This document shows, piece after piece, positions 2,297 through 10,283 of a stretch of DNA of 34,582 nucleotides; position 1 is the first letter of the stretch; each line of letters starts with the position of its first letter. The stretch is from a virus (taxonomy: Duplodnaviria > Heunggongvirae > Uroviricota > Caudoviricetes): IMG/VR virus record IMGVR_UViG_2623620495_000015. One strand, given 5' to 3'. The notes under the pieces were generated by a model. That model did not search any database. It had not been told where the DNA came from and saw only the letters and a list, made by a program, of their open reading frames with translations. The position numbers were made by a program, and so were the translations under genes.

Positions 2297-3190
2297 ATGA
2301 GTTTAATTACGCAATTAAATGACGTAATGGCCCGTCGCGGCTATACGCAGACCCACGTAGCCCGTGCTATTGGGCGTAGTAACGCCGTTATTAACCAGTA
2401 TTTGCAGGGTAAATATCAGGGCGATATCGCTGATATCGAAGAGCGAATTTCTGCCTTTGTCAGCCGTGAACGGGAGAAAGAAAACAATCGCCGTGTTAAA
2501 GCAAATTTTGTTGCCACCAATATGGCTGCCAAAGGACTGGAAGTGCTGGCCTACGCTCACCTGGAATGTGAAATCTGTGTACTGTATGGCGCAGCAGGCC
2601 TTGGCAAAACAATGATTCTGCGTGAATACGCAGCCAGAAACCGGGATGCGGTCCTGATTGAGGCTGACCCGGGCTACACAGCCAGGACACTGCTTGAGGA
2701 GTTGTGCCGCCAGCTGGGGGTAAAGGTTCGCGGCAACATTCACGAACTGATTGATGCCTGTGTGCGCGAACTGGGTGATTCCGGTCGTCTGCTGATGGTG
2801 GACGAGGCTGAACTGCTACCCTATCGCGCACTGGAGGTTCTGCGCCGTCTGCATGACAAGGCGGGTATCGGGATTGTCCTGGCGGGTATGCCACGCCTTC
2901 TGATTAACCTCAAGGGGCGTCGTGGTGAGTTCGCCCAGTTATACAGCCGTGTTGCGCTGGCGCTTAACCTGGGCGACACGCTGTCGCAGGAAGATTTTAA
3001 CCAGATAGCCACAGAGCTGATGCCGGAAGCCGTTGAACCGGAAATCAGCGAGGCGCTTTACACGCGCTCGTTGGGTAATGCCCGCCGTCTGTTCAAACTG
3101 GCGCGCGGTGTGTACCGGATTTGTGATATCAGCGATGCCCCCGTCAGCGTGCAAGCTATTGATGATTTCGCAGAAATGTTAATTCACTGA
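2297..3190 (+). CDS. B: MuB-like AAA+ ATPase, transposition target DNA activator
   Basis: 297-aa ORF; Walker A GAAGLGKT; MVDEAE Walker B-like; N-terminal HTH-like segment; follows the transposase as in Mu. Confidence 0.85.
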   Translation: MSLITQLNDVMARRGYTQTHVARAIGRSNAVINQYLQGKYQGDIADIEERISAFVSREREKENNRRVKANFVATNMAAKGLEVLAYAHLECEICVLYGAAGLGKTMILREYAARNRDAVLIEADPGYTARTLLEELCRQLGVKVRGNIHELIDACVRELGDSGRLLMVDEAELLPYRALEVLRRLHDKAGIGIVLAGMPRLLINLKGRRGEFAQLYSRVALALNLGDTLSQEDFNQIATELMPEAVEPEISEALYTRSLGNARRLFKLARGVYRICDISDAPVSVQAIDDFAEMLIH

Positions 3191-3204: not shown

Positions 3205-3537
3205 ATGGAAAAAATGGCTCTCAGAAATGAAATCAGGGCACTCAGGAATATTGGTTGTCATGGGCGCGTTTATTTTGATGGAACCCCTGGTGAAATTATT
3301 CCGTTTGTTGATTGCCGCGTGCCGGGTGAACTGTACATTGATTTGTATTCCCGCGAACGGGAAATCAATGGAATCGGAAATACCAGCGATGACTGGGATG
3401 TTGATGAATGCTATATGCGATTAATGATTATCCCTTTTGAGCAGAATTTACAGGGGTTTCGCCGGGCTTATCGTCTTGCGCGTATGTGTGCCCGTCTTCC
3501 CCGTTATCAGCCACGGCTTGCGTTTGCACTCAGATAA
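3205..3537 (+). CDS. hypothetical early protein (110 aa), candidate inserted accessory gene
   Basis: ATG with GGGAG RBS 7 nt upstream; bracketed by an 18-bp direct repeat of the B 3' end. Confidence 0.5.
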   Translation: MEKMALRNEIRALRNIGCHGRVYFDGTPGEIIPFVDCRVPGELYIDLYSREREINGIGNTSDDWDVDECYMRLMIIPFEQNLQGFRRAYRLARMCARLPRYQPRLAFALR

Positions 3538-3563
3538 TGCGGCAGAGAAATGTTAATTCACTG

Positions 3564-3803
3564 ATGGAGAACAAGATGATGGACAAGCAGACCATTAACG
3601 CCGTCCGTTCCCGTGCCCGTGTGGCCATCCATACCACCGGCGGTCGCGTAACGTGGCAGCATCACCGTTTACCTGTGGTTTATGCCTGCCCGCCCGTGGG
3701 TGGTCCTGTATGGCCGGTAACGGAAATCATCCAGACATTCAGCGGCCTGCGCCGCGTGGTTAAAACGTCCTGTATCGACGGCTGCACCGTCGTATGGCAA
3801 TAA
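3564..3803 (+). CDS. hypothetical early protein (79 aa)
   Basis: ATG overlapping the TGA of the repeat copy (TGATG); in frame with track ORF 3486..3803; Cys-rich. Confidence 0.4.
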   Translation: MENKMMDKQTINAVRSRARVAIHTTGGRVTWQHHRLPVVYACPPVGGPVWPVTEIIQTFSGLRRVVKTSCIDGCTVVWQ

Positions 3804-4060: not shown

Positions 4061-4705
4061 ATGACGACTGAAAATAAAGTTAAACAATATACGAAAAACC
4101 AGGTGACCGAAGGTTACTGGGTGGATGCCCGTGGCGTAATGACACCTGAAAGTCTGATTAAGGATATTGACCGCGACCGCGAGCAGCTGGTCGGTGAGAT
4201 TGTCGAACTGGTGATTGCTGCCTCCGCCTCGCTGCGTGATTTGAAACTGCGCGCGTTTGGCGATATTCAGGCATTTATTGACCTGTCGGCGGAGAAATAC
4301 GGCGCTGTGAAAGGCGGCAAAAAAGGCAATATCACGCTTTACAGCTTTGACGGGCGTTACAAGATTCAGCGCGCCATGCAGGACCGTATCGCGCTTGATG
4401 AACGCATTCAGACCGCGAAGGCGCTGATTGATGACTGTCTGGCTGACTGGACGGAAGGTGCACGCCCTGAAATTAAAGCCATCATCAGCGAGGCATTCAG
4501 CACGGACAAGGAAGGCAACATTAACACCGGGCGCGTTCTGGCTCTGCGTCGTCTCGATATTACGGAGGAACGCTGGGATAACGCCATGAAACTGATTGGT
4601 GAAGCCGTCCAGGTGGTTGGCAGCAGAAGCTATATCCGCGTGTATGAGCGCGTCGGTGATTCTGCTGAATACCGCGCAATCCCGCTTGATATTGCAGGGG
4701 TTTAA
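4061..4705 (+). CDS. hypothetical early protein (214 aa), possibly DUF3164-like
   Basis: GAGG RBS; mixed-charge globular composition; resembles a family seen in Mu-like prophages (recalled, unverified). A full-length antisense ORF (4055..4708) is judged a shadow. Confidence 0.55.
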   Translation: MTTENKVKQYTKNQVTEGYWVDARGVMTPESLIKDIDRDREQLVGEIVELVIAASASLRDLKLRAFGDIQAFIDLSAEKYGAVKGGKKGNITLYSFDGRYKIQRAMQDRIALDERIQTAKALIDDCLADWTEGARPEIKAIISEAFSTDKEGNINTGRVLALRRLDITEERWDNAMKLIGEAVQVVGSRSYIRVYERVGDSAEYRAIPLDIAGV

Positions 4706-4706
4706 C

Positions 4707-4940
4707 ATGCATCAGGATATCAAAGAGTACAGAGCCAGAAATAGTTGCGCGGCGTATTCGCTGGGCGCGTCCAGAGCAGAACAACGCGGCGATTATGCCG
4801 AAGCTGAAAAACTGTGGCGTAAGGTAGCACAAAGCCCGTGTAGTACCCTGCGCCGCATCTGGGCGGAACACCGGGCAGAGTTCTGTGCCAATGCTCACCT
4901 GAAAGGATGGAAGCCGCCTCATGAACGCGAAGAACTTTAA
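4707..4940 (+). CDS. small ANR-like regulator candidate (77 aa)
   Basis: ATG 2 nt after the upstream stop; pattern AE..G.Y.EAE.LW...W.E.RAEFC resembles small prophage ANR-family proteins (memory only). Confidence 0.4.
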   Translation: MHQDIKEYRARNSCAAYSLGASRAEQRGDYAEAEKLWRKVAQSPCSTLRRIWAEHRAEFCANAHLKGWKPPHEREEL

Positions 4941-5112
4941 TCAGTTATATCCGCCAGGAACTCGCTTCATGCACATTGCACACCCGGCACTGCGTGGTGG
5001 TCGTGTGGTGAAAACCGTTGCGCCAGCCAGAGATTTTAAATGTGGTTGTGTGGTTGAAATTAATGTCGAGCCTTATTTCGTAAAAGTCGAAACACTGAAA
5101 GCACCGCATTAA
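4921..5112 (+). CDS. hypothetical small protein (63 aa)
   Basis: ATG overlapping the end of the previous gene; no recognisable motif. Confidence 0.3.
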   Translation: MNAKNFNQLYPPGTRFMHIAHPALRGGRVVKTVAPARDFKCGCVVEINVEPYFVKVETLKAPH

Positions 5113-5142
5113 TTTAATTTGCTTTTAATTGTTATTTAAACC

Positions 5143-5174
5143 AGGCGTAAACACGCCAGGGCTGGCTTACGCCT
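5143..5174 (+). promoter_or_regulatory. conserved stem-loop module A upstream of gene 5194
   Basis: AGGCGTAA (5143-5150) pairs with TTACGCCT (5167-5174); loop contains GCCAGGGCTGGC; paralogous copy at 5769-5798. Confidence 0.5.
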
Positions 5175-5193
5175 GAATCAAGAGGATTTATAT

Positions 5194-5739
5194 ATGAAAG
5201 ATAAAGTCTGGGATTTTATTGTTACTCCGAAAGGTTTTGCTACCCGTAAATCTGTAGAGTTGGCCAATGTTACGTTATGGGCATCATCATTGCTGGGACG
5301 TCTGGGAGGACCCGGTAGTTTTATGGATGCGGTACTTAATGCCCAGATTGCCGGGAATGCTCTGGCCAGTAACGGGGCTTATATTCAGGGGGACTTGTTC
5401 GCCATGATGGCAAATGACACGGTTGCACTGTACCTCGCGACACGGAACATACTGACAAGAATATCCATGCAGTCATGTAGCGAGGGTATGGAAGACCTCC
5501 GGGACATTCTTGAAGGTGATTTGCTCACTATTTCAGGTGTGCAGGAATCCCTCCCGCGTCAGTTGCGGTTTATTGACCTGATGGAGTCATATAAAGATAA
5601 ACCTGATTTTTTTCATATTCGATTCAGCGGGATGGAACTGCTGGATGAATATTATTCGCTGGATTCGATTTCCCGTGATGTGAAGGCGTTTGTTAAGTCA
5701 GTTGATCGCCATTACCGGAAAGCTGAACGCTGTAGTTAA
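5194..5739 (+). CDS. hypothetical protein (181 aa)
   Basis: ATG with AAGAGG RBS; preceded by stem-loop module A; no family recognised. Confidence 0.55.
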   Translation: MKDKVWDFIVTPKGFATRKSVELANVTLWASSLLGRLGGPGSFMDAVLNAQIAGNALASNGAYIQGDLFAMMANDTVALYLATRNILTRISMQSCSEGMEDLRDILEGDLLTISGVQESLPRQLRFIDLMESYKDKPDFFHIRFSGMELLDEYYSLDSISRDVKAFVKSVDRHYRKAERCS

Positions 5740-5768
5740 TAAGTCTGTTTTTAATTTTATTTGTATAT

Positions 5769-5798
5769 GACGTAAACCAGTCAGGGCTGGCTTACGTC
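5769..5798 (+). promoter_or_regulatory. conserved stem-loop module B upstream of gene 5818
   Basis: GACGTAA (5769-5775) pairs with TTACGTC (5792-5798); same loop core CAGGGCTGGC; differs from module A by a compensatory G-C to A-T stem change. Confidence 0.5.
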
Positions 5799-5817
5799 TG
5801 AATAAGAGAAATTCATT

Positions 5818-6534
5818 ATGGAAAATAAAAGTAAATACATTGCCAGAATTAAAAAACTGTTACGCCTTGCCAGAGGAACATCAAGCCCGGAAGAAGCCGC
5901 TAACGCTATTGCAAAAGCCCAGGCATATATGCGCCAGTATGGTATCAGCGAAAACGACGCGGAATTGTTCGATATTCAGGAGGCTGCCAGCGCGGGTGCC
6001 CCCAGTAATGCTGTGATTTCGCCGCGCTATATGCATGTTCTGTGTAGTCTGGTCCGCAATGCCTTCGGGGTTGAATGTTATATCTCCTTTAAATATCTGG
6101 AATCTGGTTCACGTAAATGCTACGTGAAATTTTATGGACCTGGCAGCCGCCCGGAAATCGCTGCCTACGCGTTTGATGTGCTTTCCCGTCAGATGATGGC
6201 AGAGCGCAGGAAATATCAGGATAAACACTGCAAACGTTGCAGCCCGTCCACGCGGGTGGCCCGTGGTGACCAGTTCTGCGAAGGCTGGGCCTTTGGTGCC
6301 CGTGACGTGATTACGGTGTATGACGTCTCCCCGGAAGAGAAAGGTCGTATTGAGCTTTACCGGCAGAGCCTGCACAGCTCTAAAGGGCTGCGCGAAGGGA
6401 ATATGCGCACAGCTAAAGCGTGTCGGGGTGCAGAGTTTGCCGCTACTGCGGGTTTTATCGCCGGGAAAAACGCCAGACTGCATCAGGGGGTTAATGGTCA
6501 GAGCAACAGACCGCTGGCACTGGGGAGGGGATAA
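5818..6534 (+). CDS. hypothetical protein with DUF2786-like N-terminus and Cys-containing C-terminal region (238 aa)
   Basis: N-terminus IARIKKLLRLARGTSSPEEAANAIAKAQAYMRQYGI resembles DUF2786 (memory); C-terminal part has HCKRC...C motif. Confidence 0.55.
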   Translation: MENKSKYIARIKKLLRLARGTSSPEEAANAIAKAQAYMRQYGISENDAELFDIQEAASAGAPSNAVISPRYMHVLCSLVRNAFGVECYISFKYLESGSRKCYVKFYGPGSRPEIAAYAFDVLSRQMMAERRKYQDKHCKRCSPSTRVARGDQFCEGWAFGARDVITVYDVSPEEKGRIELYRQSLHSSKGLREGNMRTAKACRGAEFAATAGFIAGKNARLHQGVNGQSNRPLALGRG

Positions 6535-6536
6535 CG

Positions 6537-6764
6537 ATGGCTTTTAAACTTCTCAGTGTTACCGAAGCAATATACCAGCCGCCAGGAGAACGCCACGAAT
6601 ACAGGATGAATGACGGCAGCGCGGCGGTTGAGTTCCCTAAATATCCGGGGGCTTCCCGGTGGCGGTTCTATGACAGTGCGGGACGCCGGATTATTAAAAG
6701 AACCGTGCACAACGCCATGAAAGCCGCTGTAGAACGTCACAAAAGAAGGTTTAACTGCAAATGA
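6537..6764 (+). CDS. hypothetical small protein (75 aa)
   Basis: GGGAGGGG RBS; tightly packed after the upstream gene. Confidence 0.4.
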   Translation: MAFKLLSVTEAIYQPPGERHEYRMNDGSAAVEFPKYPGASRWRFYDSAGRRIIKRTVHNAMKAAVERHKRRFNCK

Positions 6765-7271: not shown

Positions 7272-7432
7272 ACCAGCAAACCAGAATAAGCGATAAGAGT
7301 CTGACCAGACTGATTGCTGATGCGGACAAGGTGCTGGAGCGGAACACCCCGGTTGCCGATGAGGAATGGTGGCAGGATTTCCGGGCCGCAATGCTGGAAC
7401 TTCAGGAACGTCGTCGGGAGGAGTTGAAGTGA
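7268..7432 (+). CDS. hypothetical small protein (54 aa, GTG start)
   Basis: Translated manually (below the track cutoff); AGGAGG 8 nt upstream of GTG; GTGA overlaps on both sides. Confidence 0.3.
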   Translation: MNQQTRISDKSLTRLIADADKVLERNTPVADEEWWQDFRAAMLELQERRREELK

Positions 7433-8055
7433 GCAAGATGAAAGAGCGCGGCATGATTTTTAATGATGCGATGGTCAGGGCCATCCTCGAAGGCAGGAAG
7501 ACGCAGACTCGCCGACCTGTAAAAAATGTCGGGGCGGATAACTACCTGGTTATCAGTAAACCGACAAAGAAACGCAATGGTGTCTATATCCATGTTATGG
7601 ATGCACCGAAACATGGTTTATGTCCGTTCGGTAACGTTGGTGATCGCATATGGGTACGTGAAACATTCAACGCTTTTTGGCTGGATAACGATGTCATTCA
7701 GGAAATCAAAAATGGTGTCTCTCTGGCTTCTGAACTGTGTGATTACAAGGCTGATTACTCAGATAGTAGCAATCTAGCTGAGGGTTGGACCCCGTCAATT
7801 CACATGCCGCGATGGGCATCGCGTATTTTGCTGGAAATTACCGACGTGCGTGTGGAACGGCTGCATGACATGAGCGAGGCAGATGCTAAAGCGGAAGGCG
7901 CATCTCCGGCGACGTACAAGATTACACCGCCGGAAGCTGTTTATCGCGTTGGCTTTGGTGATATCTGGCGCGGTATTTACGGGCAAGAGAACTGGTTATC
8001 TAACCCGTGGGTATGGGTAATTGAGTTTAAGCGTATTCAGGAGGGCAACCAGTGA
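7429..8055 (+). CDS. hypothetical protein, possible ASCH-like fold (208 aa)
   Basis: GTG start 6 nt after GGGAGGAG; motifs GRKTQTRRP and GDRIWVRETF recall ASCH-type domains (memory, unverified). Confidence 0.45.
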   Translation: MSKMKERGMIFNDAMVRAILEGRKTQTRRPVKNVGADNYLVISKPTKKRNGVYIHVMDAPKHGLCPFGNVGDRIWVRETFNAFWLDNDVIQEIKNGVSLASELCDYKADYSDSSNLAEGWTPSIHMPRWASRILLEITDVRVERLHDMSEADAKAEGASPATYKITPPEAVYRVGFGDIWRGIYGQENWLSNPWVWVIEFKRIQEGNQ

Positions 8056-8645
8056 GCAACATTAATTACCAGGCACTGCGAATGGCGGCAGAAAATGCAA
8101 CCCCTGGCGAATGGTGTTCTGATAATTACTATGGGGTAATTGCTGATGCCGGACTGAACGCAAATTACTACATAGCATCATGCTCAGGACCAGATAATCG
8201 TGCCAATAAGCGATTCATAGCAGCAGCCAATCCGGCTGCTGTGCTGGCACTGCTGGATGAACTGGAGTATTACAAATCACGCGAAGAGCGGGTTACAAAG
8301 CTGGTTATGGATAACTCGACAAGTTGGGATGCTCTTTACAAGAAGCTGGAAGCCGCAGAGAAGCGCATAGCAGAACTGGAAGCACGGGAAACAAAACCAG
8401 CCAAAGGCGAAGTTCTTGTCGTTGTATCTGGTTTTACTGGTTGCGGAAAAAGCGCCATTGCCGGGGAAATAGAAATCGCGATGAAGGCTATTGGTGTACC
8501 GGTTAAGTGGACTAATGGCGATGCAGAAAAGCGCATGACTGGCGCTGACTGGCTGACAGCAATTGAGATGTACAAACCAACTGTGCGCATCGTGGAAGTT
8601 AATGTGCCACGCGTCGCTGGCATTCGCATCAAAGGAGGTGAGTAG
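8052..8645 (+). CDS. ead/Ea22-like protein
   Basis: GTG start after AGGAGG; motif AANPAAVLALLDELE plus coiled-coil AAEKRIAELEARE, typical of Ea22-like proteins (memory). Confidence 0.5.
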   Translation: MSNINYQALRMAAENATPGEWCSDNYYGVIADAGLNANYYIASCSGPDNRANKRFIAAANPAAVLALLDELEYYKSREERVTKLVMDNSTSWDALYKKLEAAEKRIAELEARETKPAKGEVLVVVSGFTGCGKSAIAGEIEIAMKAIGVPVKWTNGDAEKRMTGADWLTAIEMYKPTVRIVEVNVPRVAGIRIKGGE

Positions 8646-9343: not shown

Positions 9344-9713
9344 AGCCGGTCAGGCGTATCTGGGGTGGGATGATGCCCTTTATCGCCAGACGCTGGCCCG
9401 CCTGACAGGTAAAACCAGCACCACTCGCTGCAACCTCGATGAACTGCGCATCATCCGGGAATATATGCACGAACAGGGATTCCCGCGTAAAGCGCCCACC
9501 GGTAAAGGTCGCCGTCCCCGTGTTGCAATGAGCAGAAAATCGGTATTATCAAAAATTGAAGCGTTGCTGGCTGATGCCGGTCGTTCCTGGGGGTATGCGG
9601 AAGGACTGGCATCTCACATGTATAAGCAACATGTGATCGAATGGCTGACGGATGAACAGCTTTTCGGGGTGATGGTGGCGCTGGTTAAAGATTCAAGAAG
9701 GAGGAGTAAATGA
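9315..9713 (+). CDS. gemA: GemA-like protein (Mu gp16 family)
   Basis: ATG with GAGG RBS (track ORF 9216..9713 begins earlier at a non-ATG codon); MLKKMIGAIKAGQAYLGWDDALYRQTLARLTGKTS... matches the Mu gp16/GemA family from memory. Confidence 0.65.
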   Translation: MLKKMIGAIKAGQAYLGWDDALYRQTLARLTGKTSTTRCNLDELRIIREYMHEQGFPRKAPTGKGRRPRVAMSRKSVLSKIEALLADAGRSWGYAEGLASHMYKQHVIEWLTDEQLFGVMVALVKDSRRRSK

Positions 9714-10213
9714 TTAAAAAACGGTATTTTCTTTTAGTGGCGTTCATTTTGTCTTTTCCTGCCGTTGCTGAATGGCACACATGGGTACAAAAAGATGCTT
9801 TTGATGATCAACAAACAGCCATGATGGTGGGTATTGGAACAATGGATTTTGGGATTGCTTTAGACTGTTCGAATGACTCACTATTTGCTGGTATTACAAA
9901 AGAAACAGATAAAGTTAACATTGCGTTATTCGGTTCATCAAAAGATTTAATATTTAGGATAGACGAATTTCCAGCAGTAAAGACCACAGGGGTACTCGCT
10001 GCACGAAATGAAAAAATGTATATCTATAAAATAGAGGACAAACAAAAAATCAAAGAGTTGTTATCTTATCTTCGAAAAGCCCAAAAACGTGTTTTAGCTG
10101 GTGTAAAAGAACCGAGTGAAGAACGAGGCGCATCGTTTAATGTAACACCGACAGGTTCAACAACCGCTGTTAATAAATTTATCAAAGCCTGTAACATTAA
10201 GATTCCAGAGTAA
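9710..10213 (+). CDS. secreted/periplasmic protein of unknown function (167 aa), AT-rich moron
   Basis: Strong RBS GAAGGAGGAG; Sec-type signal peptide MIKKRYFLLVAFILSFPAVA/EW; GC content visibly far below flanking phage genes; own terminator downstream. Confidence 0.6.
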   Translation: MIKKRYFLLVAFILSFPAVAEWHTWVQKDAFDDQQTAMMVGIGTMDFGIALDCSNDSLFAGITKETDKVNIALFGSSKDLIFRIDEFPAVKTTGVLAARNEKMYIYKIEDKQKIKELLSYLRKAQKRVLAGVKEPSEERGASFNVTPTGSTTAVNKFIKACNIKIPE

Positions 10214-10223
10214 CTTAATAGCC

Positions 10224-10249
10224 GCCCCTGCCATGTAGGGGCTTTTTTT
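10224..10249 (+). terminator. intrinsic terminator after the secreted-protein gene
   Basis: GCCCCT (10224-10229), loop GCCATGT, AGGGGC (10237-10242), then T7 run (10243-10249). Confidence 0.6.
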
Positions 10250-10255
10250 GTGGTC

Positions 10256-10283
10256 TGTACAGGCGATCATGTATGGCTATAAT
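10256..10283 (+). promoter_or_regulatory. candidate sigma70 promoter upstream of the Mor/C-family gene
   Basis: -10 TATAAT at 10278-10283; 16-nt spacer; -35-like TGTACA at 10256-10261. Confidence 0.35.

Follow-up and report, generated by a model that had tools for sequence, protein, structure and literature searches.

The window analysed here, a stretch of 34,582 nucleotides (nt) of viral DNA held as IMG/VR record IMGVR_UViG_2623620495_000015, is a Mu-like transposable prophage of Escherichia coli. A Ner-like gene (1-237), MuA (237-2279) and MuB (2297-3190) are followed by a series of short early genes, by GemA and Mor, and then by the lysis and morphogenesis genes. The subjects of this study are two neighbouring early genes on the plus strand, which an initial annotation had described as open reading frames (ORFs) for proteins of 181 and 238 amino acids (aa), at 5194-5739 and 5818-6534, respectively. 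Both are real genes. The second encodes a protein of the DUF2786-DUF7168 type, and the reading that we favour, with confidence only slightly better than even, is that the two are independent members of the early operon, namely, a putative binding protein of the DUF2786 type and an optional, probable host-interaction cassette. All functions proposed below for either gene are inferred; what was observed directly is that the genes are real, to which families they belong, how they are distributed, that the slot varies, and that the hairpin is conserved whereas a metal motif is not.

A search of 5426 complete E. coli genomes found prophages approximately 90% identical to that of the window in 59, and the identical 181-aa protein was found in 156 blocks of an assembly collection, with E. 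coli genome assemblies among the 24 contigs that were read. No DNA-level match to the prophage was found among the isolated phages of the phage collection. The GC content is 46.2% in the 181-aa gene and 52.4% in the DUF2786 gene, and both values lie below the 57% of the late region, as the initial annotation had stated with reference to the structural genes. Because the DUF2786 gene equals the transposase A and B genes in this respect (52-54%), only the 181-aa gene is deviant within the early region. No promoter-like site was found upstream of either gene.

The 181-aa protein matches PHROG 7741, a family without an annotated function, over positions 1-181 of 181 (E-value 7.9e-101). This is its sole family match, and the absence of any match in Pfam, NCBIfam, PADLOC and the PDB agrees with the earlier remark that the protein has no recognised motif. 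PADLOC, a defence-system library with anti-defence proteins outside its coverage, has no match to the 238-aa protein either. A search of 5.8 billion proteins with the 181-aa protein returned E. coli sequences only, all with at least 75% identity, and HMMER over 1.84 billion cluster representatives returned the protein's own 50% cluster, one fragment and one 935-aa repeat protein (P0143). The E-value of the last, 1.8e-6, is summed over eight repeats, and we rejected it as a repeat-inflated chance match. A distant form of 188 aa occupies the same slot in Mu-like prophages of Salmonella; it shares 35% identity with the 181-aa protein over the C-terminal 66 aa (E-value 2e-7) and also matches PHROG 7741 weakly. 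A profile search that joined the two forms found nothing beyond E. coli and Salmonella. The ratio of nonsynonymous to synonymous substitution rates is about 0.25, with values of 0.08-0.28 in pairwise comparisons with three E. coli relatives, and the gene is real and under purifying selection. Its product is acidic (isoelectric point 5.4) and has no hydrophobic segment of membrane-spanning length. The AlphaFold model, which suggests an all-helical protein, is unreliable (predicted local distance difference test, pLDDT, 43). Among the 59 complete E. coli genomes with this prophage type, 28 carry the gene. By these comparisons, it is an optional, lineage-restricted and recently mobile cassette gene, and its distribution would fit a host-specific interaction function.

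The 238-aa protein matches the full model (1-40) of PF10979 DUF2786 with its residues 6-45 at 50.5 bits, well above the gathering cutoff of 23.9, which confirms the DUF2786-like N-terminus recognised in the initial annotation. Residues 64-190 match PF23771 DUF7168 (94.7 bits; gathering cutoff 25.5), and the whole belongs to PHROG 421. The protein is basic (isoelectric point 9.6), and its two-domain architecture and length are those of hundreds of homologues; by sequence, it is a typical representative of a mobile-element family that is found very widely. The residues that are invariant across the family (K13, L17, E26, A27, A30, A34, L75, G107, W157 and G212) are, on alignment, neither a catalytic set nor one that would bind metal. 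AlphaFold gave a confident model (pLDDT 87.4; predicted template modelling score 0.77), which runs from an N-terminal helical hairpin through a strand and a helix to a pair of strands, a long helix and then further helices. Hidden Markov model searches assigned families to both proteins, and the fold search with the 238-aa model found no solved counterpart; many KH domains are among its best partial matches, at scores below significance. Sequence and profile searches of the PDB, and likewise of NCBIfam, returned nothing for either protein, and neither gene showed homology to a protein with a characterised role in replication or transposition. A search of the literature found DUF2786 in tables only, with no functional data, and no paper on DUF7168 or PF10979. 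One such table, of the ClpC1 interactome, lists a DUF2786 protein of Mycobacterium smegmatis.

The DUF2786 gene is far more widely distributed than its neighbour. All but one of the 59 complete E. coli genomes with the transposase of this prophage type carry it (58 genomes), and the fold occurs in very diverse phages, from mycobacteriophages to T4-like rhizobiophages. Of 80 IMG/VR contigs with a gene for a relative of DUF2786-DUF7168, 47 carry the gene in a Mu-like early region approximately 1 kb downstream of a DUF3164 gene; in two others, and in the Salmonella relatives, it lies approximately 1 kb downstream of Gam. It is also found in the replication modules of a Janthinobacterium phage and phage AXL1, in the integrative and conjugative element (ICE) pKLC102, where it stands between a Lar-family protein directly upstream and HNH/DnaB genes (locus L030, 2967-4354), and in pCAR1, downstream of mobI. 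Early regions of the cI-cro-cII...xis-int type carry it as well, and there the upstream neighbour varies and may be an exoribonuclease, a methyltransferase-like, a YfbR-like or an uncharacterised protein. Taken together, the family is common in regions of early functions, replication or establishment, both in phages, temperate as well as virulent, and in ICEs and conjugative plasmids. A downstream companion in E. coli, Salmonella and Dickeya prophages is the 75-aa gene at 6537-6764 (plus strand; PHROG 9400), which is retained with DUF2786 at 42-68% identity and is truncated in one locus (L001). Because it starts 2 nt past the DUF2786 stop codon, the 75-aa gene is probably translationally coupled to DUF2786, and if DUF2786 has a true partner, the 75-aa gene is more likely to be that partner.

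Each of the two genes is preceded by a copy of one module, which consists of an AT-rich stretch, a hairpin with a 7-bp stem, TGAAT, a Shine-Dalgarno (SD) sequence and the ATG. Copy 1 (5113-5193, plus strand) has its AT-rich stretch at 5113-5139, the hairpin GGCGTAA...TTACGCC at 5144-5173, TGAAT, and the SD sequence of the 181-aa gene, AAGAGGA, at 5180-5186. Copy 2 (5740-5817, plus strand) has an AT-rich stretch, a compensatory variant of the hairpin at 5769-5798 (GACGTAA...TTACGTC), TGAAT and a weak SD sequence. The paralogous stem-loop modules of the initial annotation are borne out: a 26-nt pattern that spans the hairpin has exactly two copies in the window (5146-5171 and 5771-5796) and none in shuffled sequences, and the folding energies of copies 1 and 2 are -18.8 and -16.0 kcal/mol, with z-scores of about -4. 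In related prophages, the 30-nt hairpin (GGCGTAAACCCGCCGGGGCTGGCTTACGCC and its variants) always lies 3′ of the stop codon of a 63-aa gene (PHROG 5591; in the window at 4921-5112, plus strand) and is present at every junction of the variable slot that this gene bounds on its left (loci including L017, 5950-5979, and L021-L027). The Mu-like prophages concerned are from Escherichia, Salmonella, Citrobacter, Trabulsiella, Kluyvera, Yersinia, Buttiauxella, Intestinirhabdus, Pectobacterium and Dickeya. The hairpin sequence is conserved more than the flanking proteins; it is identical in one E. coli and one Dickeya prophage whose DUF2786 proteins are only approximately 45% identical.

Over 18 copies of the hairpin, 97.9% of the alignment cells pair, compared with at most 39% when the partner is slid, and none of 500 shuffles reaches the observed values. 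Four pairs of the stem show double compensatory changes, which support the structure only modestly because each change is seen in a single sequence and most columns are invariant. No Rfam family matches the modules. The terminator scan did not call them, and the stem is followed by TGAATCAAGAGG, with no U-tract; the hairpin is therefore not an intrinsic terminator. It is also present in prophages that lack DUF2786 and therefore goes with the sequence 3′ of the 63-aa gene; it is not a DUF2786-specific signal. Autoregulation of DUF2786 through the hairpin was accordingly rejected, since the hairpin follows the 63-aa gene even where DUF2786 is missing. Most likely, the hairpin would serve as an intercistronic element of mRNA processing or stability and as a patch of homology for cassette exchange.

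The slot between the 63-aa gene, which is its conserved left anchor, and DUF2786 is where the relatives differ. It contains no gene and measures only 84-110 nt in 15 loci, among them some from close E. coli relatives, from Dickeya and from pYR4 of Yersinia ruckeri, and its maximum length is 1520 nt. At least nine unrelated families occupy it elsewhere, namely, the 181/188-aa family, DUF7448, a 72-aa protein encoded on the reverse strand, and proteins of 106, 59, 73, 125, 84 and 156 aa. The 72-aa gene, found between the hairpin module and DUF2786 in some E. coli prophages (L002, 7429-7647, minus strand, and also L033) and as remnants in approximately ten loci, is the only occupant transcribed against the early operon. 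The 59-aa cassette encodes a zinc-ribbon protein (L022, 6553-6732) and fills the slot in prophages from Trabulsiella, Buttiauxella and Intestinirhabdus; a link of this cassette to Lar was rejected, as the match is sub-threshold (18 bits, cutoff 28.6) and the protein is unrelated by BLASTP to the Lar-family protein of pKLC102.

The junctions suggest how such genes arrive. The empty-site allele of a close relative (L038) aligns to the left half of junction 1 of the window and to the right half of junction 2, and relative to this allele the hairpin module is duplicated in the window. In Salmonella, the duplicated junction takes in the last ~25 nt of the 63-aa gene as well. A second example lies next to MuB: the optional 110-aa ORF at 3205-3537 lies between direct repeats of 19 nt, identical to each other and made up of the MuB 3′ end (3172-3190 and 3546-3564), and in relatives without it, such as L003, MuB runs straight to the 74-aa gene. 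This ORF is an insertion with the same junction-duplication signature as the 181-aa cassette. On such comparisons, the cassettes would enter by recombination at short junction homologies. An integron-type cassette array was considered and rejected: the repeats hold coding 3′ ends and an SD sequence, resembling junction duplication, and neither the early-region genes of the window that were scanned nor the annotated genes of related Mu-like loci included a site-specific integrase. It is conceivable, if doubtful, that the slot after the 63-aa gene is a dedicated exchange hot spot for early counter-defence genes in enterobacterial Mu-like phages, with the sequence-conserved hairpin module as its boundary, and that the 181/188-aa family is a new anti-defence protein directed against an immune system specific to Escherichia and Salmonella.

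The semi-essential early region of Mu holds kil, gam and unassigned genes. The initial annotation had found no Gam homologue in the window, and none was detected by us: the early ORFs have no Pfam match to Gam (PF07352), and the best tblastn match of Mu Gam against the whole window has an E-value of 0.19. By hhalign, the probability of homology to Gam is 0.1% for the 181-aa family and 0.6% for the DUF3164 protein (4061-4705, plus strand; 214 aa; assigned by Pfam), and on the latter value the idea that DUF3164 is a remote Gam homologue was dropped. In the Salmonella relatives and in two IMG/VR contigs, however, a Gam gene of 174 aa (L012, 3976-4500) lies exactly at the position of DUF3164 and has the same neighbours. 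DUF3164 and Mu Gam are thus positional alternatives, and the former may be analogous in function to the latter. That DUF3164 occupies the position of Gam accounts better for the lack of a Gam gene, and the 181-aa and DUF2786 genes therefore need not fill the role of Gam. Mu Kil is weakly matched by the 74-aa gene at about 3579-3803 (tblastn E-value 0.006, at 3726-3800), and the Dickeya gene at the same position matches the Pfam family Kil_protein; on these matches, the 74-aa gene is probably the Kil equivalent.

In the scenario that we favour, the early operon would be driven by Pe, and the 181-aa gene would be co-transcribed early. The DUF2786-DUF7168 protein would be a non-enzymatic binding protein, with a core that binds nucleic acid and a helical hairpin that binds a protein partner, and it would help the DNA of the element in early replication or establishment. 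A non-enzymatic binding role is the most likely one because the protein has no conserved catalytic or metal residues, a basic charge and a weakly KH-like core. The 181-aa cassette would have entered directly behind the 63-aa gene, where the junction is prone to recombination, and its insertion would have duplicated the AT-rich/hairpin/SD module together with some of the 3′-terminal sequence of the 63-aa gene. Its product would most likely bind a host protein specific to Escherichia and Salmonella, for host takeover or counter-defence. The initial annotation had proposed both genes as candidates for such a function. The profile of the 181-aa gene, which is optional, restricted to E. coli and Salmonella, lower in GC and located in a hypervariable slot, fits this proposal, but DUF2786-DUF7168 is near-universal in the lineage, ancient and widespread, and is not a lineage-specific addition.

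Several observations weigh against this scenario. With a pLDDT of 43 for the model of the 181-aa protein, its binding mechanism has the lack of enzyme motifs as its sole basis. Three of seven hairpin-bearing prophages from other genera have no DUF2786 gene, and in one E. coli genome the gene is split, apparently by a frameshift, into ORFs of 102 and 136 aa (L009, 6625-7340). Because some prophages lack DUF2786 and one copy is frameshifted, which suggests that a resident prophage can do without it, the gene is judged dispensable, and this also fits an accessory role. In addition, modifiers of nucleic acids, such as the Lar-family, methyltransferase-like and exoribonuclease proteins, often flank DUF2786, and these neighbours could equally place DUF2786 itself within an anti-defence neighbourhood.

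The main rival, which we regard as unlikely, makes the DUF2786-DUF7168 protein a broad-spectrum establishment or anti-defence factor, acting, for example, in restriction alleviation or the protection of incoming DNA, and not a replication helper. Its position downstream of mobI in pCAR1 may correspond to the entering end of the plasmid (a leading-region assignment that is itself inferred), and in pKLC102 it directly adjoins a restriction-alleviation protein of the Lar family. The variable methyltransferase-like and exonuclease neighbours in other prophages, the linkage to Gam or DUF3164 in Mu-like phages and the dispensability of the gene in some lineages point in the same direction. However, no similarity of the DUF2786 protein to a known anti-defence protein was found, and conservation from mycobacteriophages to T4-like rhizobiophages is broader than usual for counter-defence genes. 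The Lar link, moreover, is a single case, given that the 59-aa cassette is sub-threshold and unrelated to the pKLC102 protein.

For the 181-aa protein, the alternative is that it serves the phage itself, for example, as a regulator or as an accessory of transposition or replication, or that it mediates superinfection exclusion, and to this we give somewhat less credence. The gene does lie in the early operon among the regulators ANR, GemA and Mor, with no promoter-like site before it. However, a core phage function is argued against because half of the similar prophages do without the gene and the slot carries unrelated genes elsewhere. As for superinfection exclusion, placement in the early operon argues against the expression in the lysogen that exclusion needs.

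It is improbable that the HCKRC...C motif, in which the initial annotation saw a possible metal site, is a functional zinc site of a zinc finger or metalloprotein, although a structural zinc specific to the clade may be present. The motif itself is present (H137, C138, C141 and C154), and its four residues are retained in the closest clade, at approximately 54% identity or more. However, HCKRC is confined to one subclade, and C154, within an FCEGW motif, is the sole invariant cysteine in an alignment of 37 Enterobacterales sequences of 40-80% identity. Among 116 full-length Enterobacterales homologues, [FYW]C[EK][GSA]W occurs in 103, CxxC in 29 and HCxxC in 25, and some have a single cysteine in total. 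Even C154 is substituted in the members from Pseudomonas LPB1, pCAR1, pKLC102, Vibrio p0908, Curvibacter TJ1 and the Janthinobacterium phage, and all four positions vary among the Pseudomonas, Vibrio, Curvibacter and Janthinobacterium proteins. Because no cysteine or histidine is invariant once the distant members are included, a family-wide metal site is unsupported. The geometry, as read from the secondary structure of the model, would likewise argue against a site, with C138 and C141 on a loop that joins two helices and C154 some three turns along the helix that follows.

The least probable reading, that of the initial annotation, joins the two genes into one module for host takeover or counter-defence, in replacement of functions of the Gam type, and although the genes are adjacent and co-oriented, follow the same module and stand in a window without Gam, it is largely refuted by their distribution, since they are inherited independently (58 versus 28 of the 59 genomes), occur together in only four of the 80 viral contigs and can be separated by other genes in relatives, while the Gam slot is held by DUF3164 and hhalign finds no kinship of the 181-aa family with Gam.

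Downstream of DUF2786, two more unassigned early genes encode an ASCH-like protein of PHROG 874, with a Pfam ASCH match below the cutoff (7366-8055), and an Ead/Ea22-like protein, of a family better known in lambdoid phages (8052-8645). In the interval between GemA and Mor, a 167-aa ORF at 9710-10213 has a GC content of 36% (27% at third codon positions) and a signal-peptide-like N-terminus (MIKKRYFLLVAFILSFPAVA), and by these features it looks like a foreign gene for a secreted protein or a lipoprotein. After it, just upstream of Mor, lie a terminator-like hairpin (10224-10242) and a promoter-like site with 10 of 12 matching positions (10256-10283).

If the 181-aa protein is a counter-defence factor, the slot from the 63-aa gene and its hairpin to DUF2786 would be a simple site in which to search for more, and at least nine uncharacterised families already sit there in Mu-like prophages. 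DUF2786-DUF7168, in turn, is one of those uncharacterised proteins that are found more widely in phages, ICEs and plasmids, and it is without a solved structure; a function established for it would carry over to the annotation of thousands of genes. For the present, the finding only adds context to two catalogued families without an assigned function, that is, to ordinary phage dark matter, with the cassette slot as a modest feature of interest.

Compared with other members of DUF2786, DUF7168 and PHROG 421, the window protein shows no structural difference, and the CxxC insertion is peculiar to its subclade. Its core (approximately residues 53-137) weakly resembles a KH domain in the order beta-(loop)-alpha-beta-beta-alpha, but the first helix and the GXXG loop of that domain are missing or not conserved; no GXXG loop is present in the 238-aa protein, and an SxGAPS loop is limited to the Enterobacterales members. 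Similar to the semi-essential region of Mu, the region studied here is the part of the early operon from transposase B to gemA/mor and consists of short, co-oriented and mostly dispensable genes. Unlike in Mu, gp6 to gp14 and Gam have no detectable homologue in the window, and Kil has only a weak match; Mu itself has neither DUF2786 nor the hairpin module.

Intercistronic stem-loops and repetitive extragenic palindromic (REP)-type elements shape mRNA stability in polycistronic operons. The hairpin of the window is like them in being stable, GC-rich and located between cistrons, with an AU-rich stretch before it, no U-tract after it and compensatory changes in its stem. It differs in that it belongs to no Rfam family and in that its sequence, beyond its structure, is nearly invariant across genera. 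Temperate phages also have accessory hot spots, of which those of P2/P4 and the anti-CRISPR loci of Pseudomonas Mu-like phages are examples. These share with the present slot a fixed position between conserved anchors, unrelated small genes and empty alleles. Unlike them, the slot of the window has no occupant with a demonstrated defence or anti-defence function, lies within the early operon and is marked by a duplicated hairpin/SD module. Both protein families had already been catalogued, and the hairpin-marked cassette slot is a modestly new element.

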